A program made the position numbers and the translations under genes. Source: a virus. From it: 11,430 nt of DNA. Shown here one piece after another: positions 1,530 through 9,343 of the stretch (the first letter of the stretch is position 1; every line of letters begins with the position of its first letter). The DNA lies in UHGV virus genome UHGV-0107525; one strand, given 5' to 3'. Under the pieces are notes generated by a model, which worked only from the letters and a program-made list of their open reading frames with translations, made no database searches and was not told the DNA's origin.

Positions 1530-1922
1530 ATGGAACAAATCAGCAGCGCAGAAATTGCGGATATCATGATCAGGGCTGACTGCTATCTGACAGTCACTGA
1601 AATTACCACTCTAGCTAAAGAAAAATATCCTCACCTTCATGTTTCACGCGTAAGTGTAACCAACATCATTCGGCATTTTGTGCGGTCAAGCCGAGCTATT
1701 TGTGAGCTTGATGATCGTGTTTACCCACGGAAATACTGGTTGCATGGCCTGAACGGATATCAGTTCAAGGTGCGCGGGCGCACCCCTGAATACGGCAGTT
1801 TGCTGGTTAAAAACTGTAGCCGGAAGTCTGCAGAACTGGCGCGACAAGAGCAGCGCAAGCTGGTGGACATGGCTAATAAGCTGTGGAATGCCGCAGTTAA
1901 AAAGCGTGGTGTTGCTTTATGA
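1530..1922 (+). CDS. Putative small DNA-binding protein (winged-helix-like), immediately upstream of and overlapping pacA
   Basis: ATG at 1530 with GGGGGA 4 nt upstream; stop overlaps the pacA ATG (ATGA at 1919-1922). Helix-turn-helix-like segment LTVTEITTLAKEKYPHLHVSRVSVTNIIRHF followed by a wing-like YPRKYWLHGLNGY. P1 has its late-promoter activator lpa in this position, but homology could not be verified. Confidence 0.5.
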   Translation: MEQISSAEIADIMIRADCYLTVTEITTLAKEKYPHLHVSRVSVTNIIRHFVRSSRAICELDDRVYPRKYWLHGLNGYQFKVRGRTPEYGSLLVKNCSRKSAELARQEQRKLVDMANKLWNAAVKKRGVAL

Positions 1923-3283
1923 GCCTTGTTAATTGGGAAGAGCACCGCGCCAAATTTATAGCGTTGCGTGAAGAAAAAGGGATCACCGTAAAGGAATACT
2001 GCGAGCAACACGACCTTAGCTTCAATACCGCCAGAAAGCATCTCAATATGAAAAAAAATGAGGTGCGGTCGCAGGTGAAGACTACAAAAAAAAGCACCAA
2101 ATCACCTGAAAAAAAACGGGCAGGAAGAGCAAAAAAAAGGCCAGAAGAGGGTACAGAAACAACAAAATTTACAGAAACTGACAATTCACAGAGCGGAAGT
2201 TCTTTCCGGAGCATGCCGAGAAAGAAAACTTCGGATCATAAAAATAACGACAATAATAACAATGAGATAAAAGAATCTGTCAGGAGATCATTGCGCGAAA
2301 AAATGGCGAAAATGATCCCCACCGAAGATAAATGCGCCTCAAAAATCGAGGGATCTTCAGCAATGATCCCTGGCGGTGCTGTGCAGCGTGCCACGTTGCC
2401 CACTACGAGTGTGGCTCGCGACATGATGAAGAACGGCGCAGAAGAGCACCTGCGGTTAGCAATTCAAATGGCGCAAGAACGCGCACTTCAGTACCAAAGC
2501 ATTGTTGATCAGGAGGCCGAACGCCTACAGGCGGAGATAGACGCCCTGGGTGATGAACAGCCAGAAGGAATGCACCCTGGGCAGCGACTTCTCGGTCTAA
2601 TCAGTGACGCGGCCTACTACATGAACGATTTTATCAGTAGGTTGGCAGCGATATATCAGTCCGAACAAAAGCTGCGACAGGGTGATGAAAAACTTCGTCA
2701 GGGTGCTCGCCAGCAAGCATTCAGAGAGGCCGAGGCCAGAGAAAAACTCGAATTAGCACGCCTACAGGCCGAACAGCGTGGCAAAGAGATTGAATATCGC
2801 ATTGGCGCTGACGCACGCGCAGCCAGAGTTATCGCCGCCGCTATACGTATGCGTGAGCGCGAGGAGCTGGACGATATCGGTGTTGCTGAATACATCGAGC
2901 GTCAGGGTGTCAGTGTCCCGGCTATCCTCGCGGCGCGCGCGGCGAAAGCTATCACTCTTCTCGAACCTCCAGTTTCTGACATCAATGATGTTGATGATGA
3001 ACAGCTGGACAAAGAAGCGAAGGAGTTTGCATCGCTTCAGGCTAACCATCCGCAATGGCTGGCAGAGCGCCGGGCGGATGTGGCAACCATTGTTGAAGAT
3101 CTGGGGTGCGGAGATTACGACCACAATGGCGAGCGTAAGGCTGGGGAATTCGAGGCCAACGACGAAGAGTTGGATATTGACCCTTCGGCTACGGATGAAA
3201 TTTACGGTGATTATGATGCATCAGACGCAGGATATGACGCCGGAGATGATGATATCGCGATAGAACCGCCGGAGGACGACTAA
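1919..3283 (+). CDS. pacA: Terminase small / pac-recognition subunit PacA-like
   Basis: 454-aa protein with N-terminal HTH-like region, lysine-rich linker, coiled-coil-like Ala/Arg/Glu-rich middle and strongly acidic C-terminus (DDDIAIEPPEDD). Stop overlaps the start of the large terminase gene (TAATG). Contains an internal GATC cluster, as P1 pacA contains pac. Confidence 0.8.
   Translation: MSLVNWEEHRAKFIALREEKGITVKEYCEQHDLSFNTARKHLNMKKNEVRSQVKTTKKSTKSPEKKRAGRAKKRPEEGTETTKFTETDNSQSGSSFRSMPRKKTSDHKNNDNNNNEIKESVRRSLREKMAKMIPTEDKCASKIEGSSAMIPGGAVQRATLPTTSVARDMMKNGAEEHLRLAIQMAQERALQYQSIVDQEAERLQAEIDALGDEQPEGMHPGQRLLGLISDAAYYMNDFISRLAAIYQSEQKLRQGDEKLRQGARQQAFREAEAREKLELARLQAEQRGKEIEYRIGADARAARVIAAAIRMREREELDDIGVAEYIERQGVSVPAILAARAAKAITLLEPPVSDINDVDDEQLDKEAKEFASLQANHPQWLAERRADVATIVEDLGCGDYDHNGERKAGEFEANDEELDIDPSATDEIYGDYDASDAGYDAGDDDIAIEPPEDD
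2233..2369. other. Candidate pac (packaging initiation) site: cluster of five Dam GATC hexamers inside pacA
   Basis: GATC at 2234, 2286, 2314, 2352 and 2365 within about 136 bp, in hexamers GGATCA, AGATCA, TGATCC, GGATCT, TGATCC; ATGATCCC occurs twice. P1 pac is a methylation-regulated cluster of TGATCA/G hexamers within pacA. Confidence 0.4.
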
Positions 3284-4791
3284 TGGCTGGTGGGCGCAAG
3301 ATTAAATGCGTCACCAGCGATCCACGCTGGCGCGATATGGTAATCAAATACCGCTACAACTTTACCCAGGCTGTTGTTGATATTTTCGGGATGTTTCCCT
3401 CCCACCAGCAGCAGGAGATTATCCAGTCCGTACAGCAAAAAGGGAGCAGAACCACTGTTACTTCTGGTCACGGTACAGGGAAATCGTCGTTAACAGCTAT
3501 GTTGTTGCTGATTTATTTGATTCTGTTCCCCGATGCCCGTGTCATCATTGTTGCTAACAAGATAGGCCAGGTTAAAACAGGGGTATTCAAATACGTTAAA
3601 CAGTATTGGGCGAATGCAGTTAAGCGTCACGGGTGGTTACAGACCTATTTTGTCCTGTCTGACACCATGTTTTATGAACGTTCCCGCAAAGGGATCTGGG
3701 AAGTTCTCTGCAAAGGTTATCGACTCGGTAACGAAGAAGCACTGGCGGGGGAGCACGCGGCACATTTGCTTCTAATTCTGGATGAAGCATCAGGCATATC
3801 TGATAAAGCGATCGGCGTAATGACTGGCGCTCTGACTGAAGAAGATAACCGAATGTTGATGCTATCCCAGCCAACAAGGCCAAGTGGTTATTTCTACGAT
3901 TCGCACCATTCTCAAGCTAAAACCCCAGACAACCCGAAAGGGATCTGGACAGCAATTGTTCTTAACTCAGAAGAATCACCGTTCGTCACACCACAATTCA
4001 TCAGGCAGAAACTCCTGGAATATGGCGGGCGCGATTCTATTGAGTACATGGTCAAGGTTCTTGGTCAGTTTCCTCGGGAGATTAACGGCTATTTGCTTGG
4101 TCGTGATGAATGCGATCGCGCTGCGCGGCGCAAGGTGTTGTTGGAGAAAAACTGGGGATGGGTGGCTACTGCTGACGTTGGTAACGGGCGAGACAAGTCA
4201 GTTCTTAATATCTGTAAAGTGTCTGGTCACCGGGAAAAGCGGCGTGTTGTTAACTTTAAGGTAATGGAAATGCCAGGGACTATGGACCCGCTGGCTTTTG
4301 CTGACTTTATATACAACGAATGCACACCGGATAAATACCCGAATATTACAATCGCGGTTGACGCAGACGGTTTTGGTTCAGATACCTGTGCGCAGCTGGT
4401 GCGCCGTGGGGCTAATCCGGTACGGATTCGGTGGGGGAAACCCATGTTTTCGAACAAAGACAAGGAGCGTTTTGTTAACCAGCGTGCCTACGCAAATATT
4501 ATGGCTCGTGATGCCATAAAGTCAGGTCGTATGCGAATAGACAGCGACCCTAAAACGGCAGAGCAAGCGTCAAAAATCCCCTTTTTACTTAATGAAGAAG
4601 GGAAGATGGCGATGATGCGCAAGGAGCACATGCGGCAAAAGCTGAACATCAAATCACCTGACCGATGGGATACCTACTGCTTTACAATGCTGGTGGACTA
4701 TGTTCCTGCTAATGAAGATATCGGCGCTGAAATGGCTACCTTCCGCGATCAGGTTCTTGCAGATGTGGAAATGCCAGATCTGGATATATAA
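3283..4791 (+). CDS. pacB: Terminase large subunit PacB-like (ATPase plus nuclease)
   Basis: 502 aa. Walker A-like TSGHGTGKSS, Walker B-like LLLILDEASG, and C-terminal acidic clusters typical of the RNase H-like terminase nuclease domain (VATADVGNGRD, IAVDADGFGSD). Immediately follows pacA. Confidence 0.9.
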   Translation: MAGGRKIKCVTSDPRWRDMVIKYRYNFTQAVVDIFGMFPSHQQQEIIQSVQQKGSRTTVTSGHGTGKSSLTAMLLLIYLILFPDARVIIVANKIGQVKTGVFKYVKQYWANAVKRHGWLQTYFVLSDTMFYERSRKGIWEVLCKGYRLGNEEALAGEHAAHLLLILDEASGISDKAIGVMTGALTEEDNRMLMLSQPTRPSGYFYDSHHSQAKTPDNPKGIWTAIVLNSEESPFVTPQFIRQKLLEYGGRDSIEYMVKVLGQFPREINGYLLGRDECDRAARRKVLLEKNWGWVATADVGNGRDKSVLNICKVSGHREKRRVVNFKVMEMPGTMDPLAFADFIYNECTPDKYPNITIAVDADGFGSDTCAQLVRRGANPVRIRWGKPMFSNKDKERFVNQRAYANIMARDAIKSGRMRIDSDPKTAEQASKIPFLLNEEGKMAMMRKEHMRQKLNIKSPDRWDTYCFTMLVDYVPANEDIGAEMATFRDQVLADVEMPDLDI

Positions 4792-4816: not shown

Positions 4817-5854
4817 TTACCAGAGTTTAGCGGCGTGCTGTGTTTGGGAGAAAGTGAACCCGTAACGTTCTTCTATGGTTTTACCGTATCTTTTCCGCGC
4901 GTCTGTCAGTTTTATGCCTGTCAGGTCATCTCCGGATGTCATCATTACGTCTAACAACTCCAGATCCATTTTATTCAGTCGCGCCATCGCTTCGCGTGCT
5001 GTCTGTATTTTACGCTCAATGATATGGCGAATAGCCGGATCGGCTTCCTCAAGCATTTTGGCTGATTTGTTCTTTAAGCTCTCATTGCGGATGTCGATGT
5101 TTCGCAAGATGTATGACTTCGCAACATAGCTTGGTTGGTGTTTCTCCAGATCGCGAACGCGATAGAGACTAAAGTCACCAAGCAGGCCGCAAGGTATCGA
5201 CTCAACCCCAGAATAAATAGTAATGCTGCGACGTTCGCCGACATTATTAACAACGGGCACTGTGGTGTTCGGAAGTTTTGCGAACACTAAGGCTCCGTGT
5301 GCGCCTACCCTGAATCGTGACAGAGCATTGCTGCCTTCAATGTTTGTTGTAAGCACTACATCTGTGTATCCATCTTTGCGCGCCCGGTAAACTTCCCCTT
5401 CAGGTTCTGATGCGAAAAAACGGCGCTCTTCTTCAAGTGCACCAACAATCTGCGAAAATATCTTGTTTTTCAGGCTTTTCTTTATAATTGCATCATATTT
5501 TTTGAGCAGATTTTCGCGCGTAAATGAGCGGGTGGTGGTCGCGCTTTGCACAACAATATGCGTGCTTTGATTTGTGTCCTCGATAATGAATGGGATCGGA
5601 GAATATACAGACTCAACAATGTTAGACGCTTTGCCGTCAGCGTTACGGCACAAGTCAACAAAGGCTTTCCATTCTGTGAGGCACTTTTCAGCTTCTTCTA
5701 GCACATTCTGATCATGTGTTAGTGCAACATGGCGGAATTCCTCGCCGGAATAACTGGTATCATGGAAAACAGAGTTTGCGACCACCAGCTCTTTCCACCG
5801 TTCAGCGGTTTGCAGGAACCGTTTGTACTCTTTCTCGATCGACTTCTTACTCAT
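4817..5854 (-). CDS. Hypothetical 345-aa protein in the position of the P1 c1 immunity repressor (possible C1-type repressor)
   Basis: Long - strand ORF convergent with pacB, AGGA-type RBS 4-5 nt upstream of the ATG (RC of 5852-5854). Placement between pacB and the lox-type site/recombinase matches P1 c1. The functional call is by synteny only; no recognisable HTH. Confidence 0.4.
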   Translation of the reverse strand: MSKKSIEKEYKRFLQTAERWKELVVANSVFHDTSYSGEEFRHVALTHDQNVLEEAEKCLTEWKAFVDLCRNADGKASNIVESVYSPIPFIIEDTNQSTHIVVQSATTTRSFTRENLLKKYDAIIKKSLKNKIFSQIVGALEEERRFFASEPEGEVYRARKDGYTDVVLTTNIEGSNALSRFRVGAHGALVFAKLPNTTVPVVNNVGERRSITIYSGVESIPCGLLGDFSLYRVRDLEKHQPSYVAKSYILRNIDIRNESLKNKSAKMLEEADPAIRHIIERKIQTAREAMARLNKMDLELLDVMMTSGDDLTGIKLTDARKRYGKTIEERYGFTFSQTQHAAKLW

Positions 5855-5881: not shown

Positions 5882-6047
5882 ATAAAATTACTATGACAAA
5901 TCTATGCCGAATAACAGGGTGAGTAAAGGATCAAGATGTGTTTTTTTATCATCAAATTTAGAAAATTCCGCCTAAAAACTGCCTGGCATAACTTAAAGCC
6001 CACACCATCAATGCATTGCCCATCTGCGCGGAAAGGAAAAAATTTCC

Positions 6048-6059
6048 TAAATTTCTAAC
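6048..6059. repeat. Copy of 12-bp motif TAAATTTCTAAC abutting the rox-like site
   Basis: Identical 12-mer also at 7272-7283; 9-bp core shared with 5873-5881. Confidence 0.3.
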
Positions 6060-6087
6060 TTTAGATAATTGGCATTATTTAAAGTTA
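6056..6087. other. rox-type recombination site (Dre target; lox analogue)
   Basis: TAACTTTAGATAAT-TGGC-ATTATTTAAAGTTA: 14-bp inverted arms around a 4-bp spacer. The reverse complement matches the rox site as I recall it (TAACTTTAAATAATGCCAATTATTTAAAGTTA) at 31 of 32 positions, with one arm mismatch. Lies 152 bp upstream of the Cre-family recombinase gene. Confidence 0.85.
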
Positions 6088-6096
6088 GTATATAAT
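6069..6096 (+). promoter_or_regulatory. Sigma70-like promoter overlapping the rox spacer and right arm, directed toward the recombinase gene
   Basis: -35 TTGGCA (6069-6074), 16-bp spacer, -10 TATAAT (6091-6096). Two GATC sites follow at 6100-6103 and 6109-6112. A second -35-like TTGACA at 6116-6121 has only a weak -10. Confidence 0.45.
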
Positions 6097-6239
6097 AATG
6101 ATCAAACGATCAGTATTGACAGACTCAAAAAGTCATGGTTCGAATCAAGGGCTTAAATTTTAAATTCTCACGGATAACTAGCCTGTCATTTTTTGTTTTT
6201 TCGCGTAGCGACACCAATTTATAGAGGTGAAATGATTAC

Positions 6240-7268
6240 ATGAGTAAACTTATTATCTCCGGTAATCCTGGCATGTTTCTTCGTGATATTGGTGCTGAGT
6301 ACCAGGAAGCCGCCAAAAATTTCATGCAGTTCCTTAATGACCAGGGCGCTTACTCACCTAATACACTGCGCGATCTGCGCTTGGTCTTTCACTCCTGGGC
6401 GCGTTGGTGCCACGCTCGTGGTATTGCGTGGTTTCCGATCTCCCCGGAAGCTGCCCGCGAATACCTGCTTCAACTGCATGATGCGGATCTGGCTTCAACC
6501 ACCATTGAAAAGCATTACGCCATGCTCAATATGCTGTTGTCACAATGCGGACTGCCGCAACTCTCTGATGACAAAAGCGTATCCCTGGCGATGCGGCGCA
6601 TCCGGCGCGAAGCTGCAACCGAAAAAGGCGAACGCACAGGCCAGGCTATACCGTTGCGGTGGGATGATCTGAAATGGCTCGACGTGTTGCTGTCCCGTTC
6701 CGAGCGGCTGGTGGACCTGCGCAACCGGGCGTTTCTCTTCGTGGCATACAATACCCTGTTGCGTATGGCTGAAATGTCCCGCGTGCGTGTTCGCGATCTG
6801 GAACAGACTGGTGACACTGTAACGCTTCACGTATCCCACACCAAAACCATCACGACCGCCGCCGGACTTGATAAGGTGCTCTCCCTCCGGACAACTGCGG
6901 TTCTCAATGACTGGCTGGACGAGTCCGGACTACGTGATCACCCGGATGCGATACTTTTCCCGCCAGTACACCGGAGCAACAAAGCGCGGATCACCACCAC
7001 GCCACTAACCGCGCCCGCGATGGAGAAGATTTTCAGTGACGCCTGGGCGCTGCTTGGTAAGAGTGATGCCACCCCAAATAAAGGCCGTTACCGGACGTGG
7101 ACAGGCCACAGTGCGCGTGTTGGTGCCGCCATAGATATGGCTGAAAAACAGGTGTCTTTGGTTGAAATTATGCAGGAAGGTACATGGAAGAAGCCCGAAA
7201 CACTGATGCGTTATCTTCGTCGTGGCGGTGTGACAGCAGGTGCCAATAGCCGCCTCATGGATTCATGA
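6240..7268 (+). CDS. dre: Cre-family tyrosine recombinase, Dre-like
   Basis: 342 aa. Aligns along its length to P1 Cre as recalled, with conserved blocks (FPISPE, AFLFVAYNTLLRMAE vs Cre AFLGIAYNTLLRIAE, WTGHSARVGAA vs WSGHSARVGAA) and catalytic Arg, His-x-x-Arg, Trp and Tyr (LMRYLRR) in place. GAGGTG RBS 10 nt upstream. Adjacent rox-type site supports Dre. Confidence 0.92.
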   Translation: MSKLIISGNPGMFLRDIGAEYQEAAKNFMQFLNDQGAYSPNTLRDLRLVFHSWARWCHARGIAWFPISPEAAREYLLQLHDADLASTTIEKHYAMLNMLLSQCGLPQLSDDKSVSLAMRRIRREAATEKGERTGQAIPLRWDDLKWLDVLLSRSERLVDLRNRAFLFVAYNTLLRMAEMSRVRVRDLEQTGDTVTLHVSHTKTITTAAGLDKVLSLRTTAVLNDWLDESGLRDHPDAILFPPVHRSNKARITTTPLTAPAMEKIFSDAWALLGKSDATPNKGRYRTWTGHSARVGAAIDMAEKQVSLVEIMQEGTWKKPETLMRYLRRGGVTAGANSRLMDS

Positions 7269-7271
7269 GAT

Positions 7272-7283
7272 TAAATTTCTAAC
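7272..7283. repeat. Second copy of 12-bp motif TAAATTTCTAAC, between dre and the downstream operon
   Basis: Exact 12-bp match to 6048-6059, located 4 bp after the dre stop. Confidence 0.3.
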
Positions 7284-7342
7284 ACACCTTTTTAGATTGT
7301 TATCTTTGCTGTAAAGTACCCTCTCCTATTTCGGAGGGTGCT

Positions 7343-8160: not shown

Positions 8161-8651
8161 TTTACGTAAAAGTGAAACGCCTACATCCGGCAGCAAAACT
8201 TCCAGCTTATGCCACTGCCGGATCGGCGGCGATGGATTTTGAGGCTATTGAAATAACACCGTGCGTCGATAGCAATGGTGCAATTTCCTCAAGCTGGTGG
8301 GTGCATACCGGGCTGGCTATGGAGATCCCGCCCGGCTGGTGTCTGAAACTCTATCCGCGTTCCGGATTGGGCTGCAAAAAACATACTCGCCTGGCTAACT
8401 GCGTAGGAATTATCGACTCCGATTATCGCGGTGAAATCATGGCAAAACTGATTACTGATCCCGGCGGTGAAGGCGTTTGCCTCAAGCCAGGAATGGCGGT
8501 CATGCAAGGCATTTTTGAGCGTGTTGAACAAGTCTCTCTGGTCGAAGTTGAGGAACTCAACGAAACGGAACGTGGTGCTGGTGGCTTTGGTAGCACATCA
8601 GAAGGCCGCTTTGAAATTAAGCGTTCACCGCTTCAGTACGAAAAGTTATAA
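8157..8651 (+). CDS. dut: dUTP diphosphatase (trimeric dUTPase)
   Basis: Five dUTPase motifs recognisable in order: ATAGSAAMDF (motif 1 variant), YPRSGLG, GIIDSDYRGE, MAVMQ, RGAGGFGSTS. Confidence 0.85.
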   Translation: MIYVKVKRLHPAAKLPAYATAGSAAMDFEAIEITPCVDSNGAISSSWWVHTGLAMEIPPGWCLKLYPRSGLGCKKHTRLANCVGIIDSDYRGEIMAKLITDPGGEGVCLKPGMAVMQGIFERVEQVSLVEVEELNETERGAGGFGSTSEGRFEIKRSPLQYEKL

Positions 8652-8665
8652 GCAGAGGAAAGACT

Positions 8666-9343
8666 ATGGCTAGCATAGCAACGAAAGAGCTTTTTAGGTT
8701 CATTCCCAAATACAAAGCTCACAAAATCGTTAGTGCATCGAAAATCAAAAATGTTGTTATTTTCGGAGTAACTGATACCCCACTTTGGGGCAGCATCGAA
8801 CTCGTTGAGCCAAAAGGGGCAACAGTTTGTGTTGACGCAATGTTTTTACAAAAACACCGACCAAAAACTGGCGGGTATCTGATCGTTTATGAAAACGGTT
8901 ATCTGTTCTATGCCCAGGAGAAACCATTTGAGGAATGCTATGCCCTGGTTAACGACGCCTCCGAAAATGGAACCACGGTCATCATTACGGATGACAACGG
9001 CGTGATGACTAATCTTACCGGGAGCGTAACTATTTCTGCTGGTGGCATCACTACTCAGCAAGAAGAAATCGACCTTGAAGCAGCCGACTTTTCTGACGCG
9101 CTGATGTGGCTGAAGGAAGGAAAGAAAGTTGCTCGACGCGGGTGGAACGGCGAAAACCAATTCTGCTGGCTGGTTCCTGAAGGACAGTACCCAGCACGAA
9201 TGGAAGCCATTAAGGGATATTTCCCCGGCGACCTCGTTCCGTATGGTGCTTATTTCGCCTTAAAAAATGCACAAGGTGTAGTTGTTCCGTGGGTGCCTTC
9301 GGTAGGCGACTTACTGGCGTGTGACTGGTTTGTAGTGGAGTGA
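8666..9343 (+). CDS. DUF2829-domain fusion protein (Tad2-like C-terminal domain, unknown N-terminal domain)
   Basis: C-terminal about 85 aa FSDALMWLKEGKKVARRGWNGENQFCWLVPEG...VVVPWVPSVGDLLACDWFVVE matches the DUF2829 signature (F-x-x-A-L-x-x-L-K-x-G-K-K-V-x-R-x-G-W-N-G ... D-L-L-A-x-D-W). GAGGAAAG RBS before the ATG at 8666. Confidence 0.75.
   Translation: MASIATKELFRFIPKYKAHKIVSASKIKNVVIFGVTDTPLWGSIELVEPKGATVCVDAMFLQKHRPKTGGYLIVYENGYLFYAQEKPFEECYALVNDASENGTTVIITDDNGVMTNLTGSVTISAGGITTQQEEIDLEAADFSDALMWLKEGKKVARRGWNGENQFCWLVPEGQYPARMEAIKGYFPGDLVPYGAYFALKNAQGVVVPWVPSVGDLLACDWFVVE

Follow-up and report, generated by a model that had tools for sequence, protein, structure and literature searches.

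The Dre/rox system of Escherichia phage D6 (Sauer and McDermott 2004, as cited in PMC4777119; GenBank AY753669 and MF356679) is the closest described relative of the locus analyzed here, and it is a standard genome-engineering tool used alongside Cre/loxP of phage P1. In the D6 immC region (AY753669), positions 4909-4940 are annotated as a misc_recomb feature, labeled 'region of crossover (rox) site for Dre recombinase', which in the orientation of dre reads TAACTTTAAATAATTGGCATTATTTAAAGTTA. The wild-type rox site as printed in PMC4777119, 5'-TAACTTTAAATAATGCCAATTATTTAAAGTTA-3', is the reverse complement of this sequence, and the annotation and the printed site together served as our canonical reference. 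The loxP site of P1, described as 13-8-13, likewise lies between c1 and the recombinase gene near pac, and the system is established to act in cyclization of the P1 genome and in dimer resolution. Half-sites of loxP and rox differ at three consecutive bases, C8G9T10 in loxP versus TAA in rox (PMC4957104); the specificity triplet corresponds to positions 10, 11, and 12 in structural numbering (PMC7438526). On the protein side, R, P, and K at Cre positions 43, 259, and 263 experimentally switch Cre toward rox (PMC4957104; PMC7438526). A third system, Panto/pox from Pantoea sp. aB, combines a Dre-like enzyme with the same R/P/K residues, which by the paper's figure is ~52% identical to Dre, and a site whose inverted repeat is one nucleotide off rox and whose spacer is different (PMC4957104). 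Dre recombines pox (PMC4957104), as well as sites with up to four half-site mismatches (PMC10250229).

The stretch of DNA under analysis (hereafter the window; 11,430 nt of the virus genome UHGV-0107525) carries at positions 6056-6087 an unstranded 32-bp recombination site with the 14-4-14 architecture of rox. Its + strand reads TAACTTTAGATAATTGGCATTATTTAAAGTTA, i.e., TAACTTTAGATAAT-TGGC-ATTATTTAAAGTTA. The asymmetric 4-bp spacer (6070-6073; GCCA on the other strand) and the right, dre-proximal arm (6074-6087, +) are those of canonical rox, and the left, c1-proximal arm (6056-6069, +) shares 13 of its 14 bases with it. The sole difference from canonical rox is an A-to-G change on the + strand at site position 9 (6064), which is arm position 9. 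An earlier note on this DNA had claimed a match at 31 of 32 bases with C for T on the other strand; both claims were borne out against the AY753669 annotation and the site printed in PMC4777119, the variant reading ATTATCTAAAGTTA on that strand. The 14-bp arms are complementary at 13 of 14 positions, and adding the flanking C/G extends them to 15-nt arms with 93% complementarity. A degenerate rox pattern allowing up to 3 mismatches matched once in the window and in none of 200 shuffles, so that the site is not a chance occurrence. The pattern scan and a half-site scan, in which the two rox arms were the only matches, found no second or pseudo rox site in the window. With two inverted 14-bp arms of the TAACTTTAAATAAT type, a 4-bp asymmetric spacer, and a 31/32 match, window positions 6056-6087 are confirmed at the sequence level as a genuine rox site, one base off the published sequence.

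The genes around the site are arranged as in D6. Upstream, a late-promoter activator gene (lpa, 1530-1922) and the packaging genes pacA (1919-3283) and pacB (3283-4791), all on the + strand, occur as in the pac-c1 region of D6 and P1, followed on the - strand by a C1-type phage repressor gene (4817-5854) that is divergent from dre; the family PF27008 (Phage_P7_repressor_C1) was detected on an identical-length neighbor gene. Located 3' of dre are two small ORFs, dut, and then a DUF2829/Tad2-like gene. The order lpa-pacA-pacB-c1-rox-dre-orf-orf-dut is that of the D6 immC region (AY753669), in which the two ORFs are orf2 and orf3, and the whole window matches ~90-kb non-mobilizable E. coli plasmids at 90 to 96%. 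D6 and the ~90-kb plasmids share this order, and the source element is a D6-like phage-plasmid of E. coli, about 90 kb in size. The earlier note had derived a D6-like identity from the site: the designation stands by synteny with D6 immC, but the G variant by itself is no guide to the exact relative, since it occurs irrespective of the Dre allele next to it.

As a separate observation, the c1-rox intergenic region contains a 14-nt inverted repeat (5954-5967, AAATTTAGAAAATT; 6041-6054, AATTTCCTAAATTT) with 93% complementarity between arms 73 nt apart, the second of which stops one base short of rox. This repeat could be a candidate repressor operator pair; the P1 C1 operator consensus ATTGCTCTAATAAATTT had no match in the window at up to 3 mismatches.

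The recombinase gene (6240-7268, +) is separated from the site by 152 bp in both the window and D6. Its 342-aa product is a tyrosine recombinase with Phage_integrase and SAM-like domains (PF00589, E = 7e-16; PF02899, E = 4e-6; N-terminal SAM-like domain present). Aligned over 342 of 342 residues, it is identical to D6 Dre at 306 (89.5%), versus ~42% identity to Cre of P1, P7, and relatives, with which it shares the fold family and the catalytic residues, and 22 to 26% to Vibrio phage integrases. Alignment with Cre and Dre revealed that the catalytic residues R175, K202, H290, R293, W316, and Y325 (Dre numbering) are intact, and that R44, P259, and K263 of the window protein, at Cre positions 43, 259, and 263, are the Dre-type R, P, and K. 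The 36 substitutions that distinguish it from Dre spare all catalytic and R/P/K positions, and the one nearest a modeled DNA contact, D90E, is conservative. The nucleotide identity of the gene to D6 dre is 80.1%, with saturated synonymous divergence (dS ~1.3) and a dN/dS of 0.05, values that mark it as a second, deeply diverged and old allele under strong purifying selection. The previous description of the enzyme as a Cre-family, Dre-like recombinase thus holds, with the qualification that it is a diverged second allele and not Dre itself.

Database searches agree with this placement of the enzyme. Megablast of the site and gene against a phage collection returned no match, the longest exact run shared with D6 dre (26 bases) being shorter than the 28-base word size, and a protein search against phages recovered D6 Dre straight away. 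Among solved structures (PDB), the window protein matched only Cre and its derivatives, with no Dre structure found. NCBI already lists an identical protein, WP_219394468.1 ('tyrosine-type recombinase/integrase'), which belongs to a cluster of 845 members at 90% identity. At a threshold of 80% identity, the window protein has counterparts on ~192 PLSDB plasmids, with 84 plasmids classed as window-type (95% or more) and 106 as D6-type (80 to 90%), so that the window-type dre allele is nearly as frequent as its D6-type counterpart. A scan of one genome per species yielded only Pantoea-type relatives at 42 to 49% identity and no close Dre, which renders that collection uninformative on the G variant.

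Arm position 9 corresponds to A12/T64 in the structural numbering of Cre/Dre, the third of the three specificity positions, and the triplet in the left arm of the window is TAG, as opposed to TAA in rox and CGT in loxP. In molecular-dynamics models, P259 packs against thymine methyls in the specificity patch (PMC7438526). As the thymine methyl opposite the changed base is one that packs against P259 in these models, some loss of affinity on the G-carrying arm is plausible. The variant is nevertheless no rarity. An IMG/VR pattern scan identified 32 contigs with a rox-like site, of which 21 are canonical, 9 carry the G variant, and 2 have altered spacers, and counts of exact 33-mers in PLSDB gave 110 plasmids with canonical rox versus 28 with the G variant. 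The G-variant sites were always accompanied by a full-length recombinase gene. With these frequencies it is a common natural allele of a known system, present without annotation in dozens of public plasmids and contigs yet apparently undescribed: among the papers searched, none printed the G variant or the natural spacer variants.

That the G falls on one of the three base pairs that determine specificity, and makes both arms unequal, could be taken to mean that the site is crippled and the module a decaying relic without efficient recombination. We regard this as very improbable. The variant is kept in the plasmids and contigs counted above, always beside a recombinase gene of full length; the dN/dS of dre indicates strong purifying selection; haplotype switches map to the variant site itself, as described below; and Dre is experimentally permissive, accepting one to four half-site mismatches (PMC4957104; PMC10250229).

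Two further IMG/VR contigs (L150 and L151), whose recombinase is 57 to 60% identical, bear an equivalent site, TAACTTTATATAAT-GTCA-GTTATATAAAGTTA, in which both arms have T at position 9 and the spacer differs. They represent a more distant rox-like system. Across the family, it is apparently arm position 9 that is labile.

Linkage of the G to a particular enzyme allele was considered and rejected, since each Dre allele is found with both A and G: the G variant adjoins recombinases identical to D6 Dre at 342 of 342 residues in L002, L011, and L033, and the exact protein of the window adjoins canonical rox in L159. We then classified 52 loci by four features: the 12 bases preceding the site, the base at position 9, the spacer, and the 150 bases following the site. 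In this descriptive sample of phylogenetically non-independent loci, 10 of which were chosen for encoding the exact protein of the window, G occupies position 9 in 19 of the 20 loci whose left flank is of the window type (W; TTCCTAA.TTTC), and A occupies it in all 18 whose left flank is of the D6 type (D; ATCG.CATTTTA), whatever right flank or dre allele comes next. All four combinations of left and right flank types exist among the loci with the TGGC spacer (D/D, 16; D/W, 1; W/D, 9; W/W, 11). The position-9 base thus tracks the left-flank haplotype, not the enzyme.

The site is overlapped by a predicted sigma-70 promoter-like element (6069-6096, +; TTGGCA-16-TATAAT, 11/12) directed toward dre, whose -35 hexamer spans the rox spacer and whose -10 hexamer lies 3 nt beyond the site. 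This near-consensus element bears on the idea that the G is adaptive, either because weaker binding to the c1-proximal arm sets the order of strand exchange or because it tunes Dre occupancy of the promoter-like element. The distribution of the base lends the idea some appeal: G is present on two unrelated left-flank haplotypes, W and S, and only ever on the c1-proximal arm, the mirror position of the dre-proximal arm never being G in the 52 loci. However, A and G both occur on near-identical left flanks (L034/L129 versus the window, 2 differences in 120), which looks like simple polymorphism, and the changed base sits 5 bp ahead of the -35 hexamer. An adaptive role is therefore unlikely in our estimation, and we continue to treat the G as a tolerated, left-flank-linked base.

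Comparison of the window with its relatives revealed that relatedness switches exactly at the 32-bp site, and that the side on which similarity is retained, left or right, depends on the relative. Against L034, L002, and L011, the window has 4 to 12 mismatches in the 356 bp left of rox, ~25% divergence from 6089 to ~7270, and then at least 95% identity. Conversely, against L117, L038, and L036, heavy divergence reaches to 6052, and the first mismatch after the site is at 6123 (L117 and L038) or 6110 (L036). A divergent block that we call the dre cassette (6088-7285, +), ~75 to 85% identical to relatives that otherwise match at 95 to 100%, has rox as its left boundary. Across 6214-7285 it matches pEF-4 (L035), a plasmid of E. 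fergusonii, at 100% identity; outside this segment, pEF-4 is 52 to 84% identical to the window, save for a stretch at ~8250-9250 (~91 to 96%). The exact junction of the window, i.e., left flank, G site, and right flank, was in no PLSDB plasmid and is present in an IMG/VR contig (L010/L116) and several assemblies. The window is thus a mosaic in which the dre cassette comes from another lineage than the backbone and the left junction lies inside the 32-bp site.

Such switches are the expected footprint of natural crossovers within rox, and we infer that Dre is the agent. In principle, homologous or short-homology recombination, e.g., by phage recombinases, could have produced them at the sole conserved 32 bp with no Dre crossover. 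The intergenic flanks, ~100 bp on each side of the site, are too diverged to align, leaving the 32 bp as an island of identity, and the right cassette boundary (~7270-7300) is necessarily a homologous event. On the other hand, a dedicated recombinase acts on exactly this sequence, and a length of 32 bp is very short for RecA-dependent exchange. The position-9 base also remains linked to the left flank, which exchange in the central region would predict; this linkage is not decisive, in that most breakpoints inside the island would give the same pattern. Homology-driven switching without Dre is, on balance, a minority explanation with a small but real chance of being correct.

We therefore favor, with high confidence, a working Dre/rox module of a D6-like phage-plasmid in which the G is tolerated and linked to the left flank, and in which crossovers at rox have reassorted dre cassettes and left flanks. 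The 32-bp site would be the target of the recombinase whose gene lies 152 bp downstream; by analogy with Cre/loxP, two monomers would bind the two 14-bp arms of each site, two sites would synapse as a tetramer, and strands would be cut and exchanged around the asymmetric central TGGC via a Holliday intermediate. As presumed from P1, the reaction would serve to resolve dimers of the plasmid and to circularize the genome, which is terminally redundant, after injection. On the c1-proximal arm, the G would be a natural polymorphism that is tolerated, as its persistence in many intact elements suggests. Between co-resident relatives sharing TGGC, a rox crossover combined with a homologous crossover elsewhere, which would resolve the cointegrate, may shuffle flanks and cassettes, and the window itself would be one such mosaic.

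On its right side, the divergent dre cassette has its boundary at 7269-7300, directly after the dre stop codon (7266-7268), with mismatches against L002, L034, and L011 being dense up to 7269 and sparse beyond.

Of the promoter-like element, TATAAT is retained at an unchanged distance in 41 of 42 related loci, although the flank is otherwise 25 to 60% diverged. In P1, by contrast, the annotated cre promoters lie 100 to 400 bp from loxP and do not overlap it. A recombinase bound at rox might repress its own gene. Beside Dre-family recombinases 70 to 99% identical to that of the window, we also found natural variants of the central region, which at the same time change the -35 hexamer of the promoter-like element that overlaps the site. 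These are TGGA followed by G, the first base of the right arm (L036, L037, and L118; 6 PLSDB plasmids); TAGT (L038, L039, and L040; 33 PLSDB plasmids, mostly from Salmonella and many typed as conjugative IncFIB); TAGC (L148 = L009); and GGGG (L139 = L021). They may be naturally heterospecific rox sites. A broader proposal, which we advance tentatively and rate as slightly less probable than its negation, is that, among D6-like and related enterobacterial phage-plasmids, rox is a natural hotspot of module exchange, where a Dre crossover together with a homologous one elsewhere swaps dre cassettes and backbones, that the central variants (TGGC, TAGT, TGGA-G, TAGC, and GGGG) may define compatibility groups, that a promoter with its -35 hexamer in the crossover region may make the expression of dre self-limiting, and that the G shows tolerance at a specificity base. 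If true, the central-region variants would be ready-made orthogonal rox sites, and they are testable as such.

Relative to D6, the locus retains the architecture, gene order, and catalytic and specificity residues of the described system and departs from it in the A-to-G change at position 9, the 36 amino acid changes, the 80% nucleotide identity of dre, and the intergenic flanks on both sides of the site, which belong to other haplotypes. The system is known, and the natural allele pair is what is new; it is of modest interest and leaves the understanding of how Dre/rox works unchanged. For users of the tool, nature provides two data points: a Dre allele with 36 substitutions keeps the same target arms, and, in many intact elements, a one-base arm variant at a specificity position is found together with one or the other Dre allele. 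Because of this coexistence, users of Dre should expect TAACTTTAGATAAT half-sites to be recognized, which bears on the prediction of pseudo-sites. The breakpoints add population-level evidence for rox as a crossover point in nature.

Further from the site, the gene located just downstream of dut (8666-9343, +) encodes a 225-aa protein with a C-terminal Tad2-like domain (Thoeris anti-defense 2-like, DUF2829; E = 1e-22). A second block of low identity (71 to 84%), at 8500-9000, separates the window from the otherwise near-identical L002 and L010, and L034 remains at 95 to 97% there. This block, located around the 3' end of dut and the beginning of the Tad2-like gene, is a further mosaic segment.
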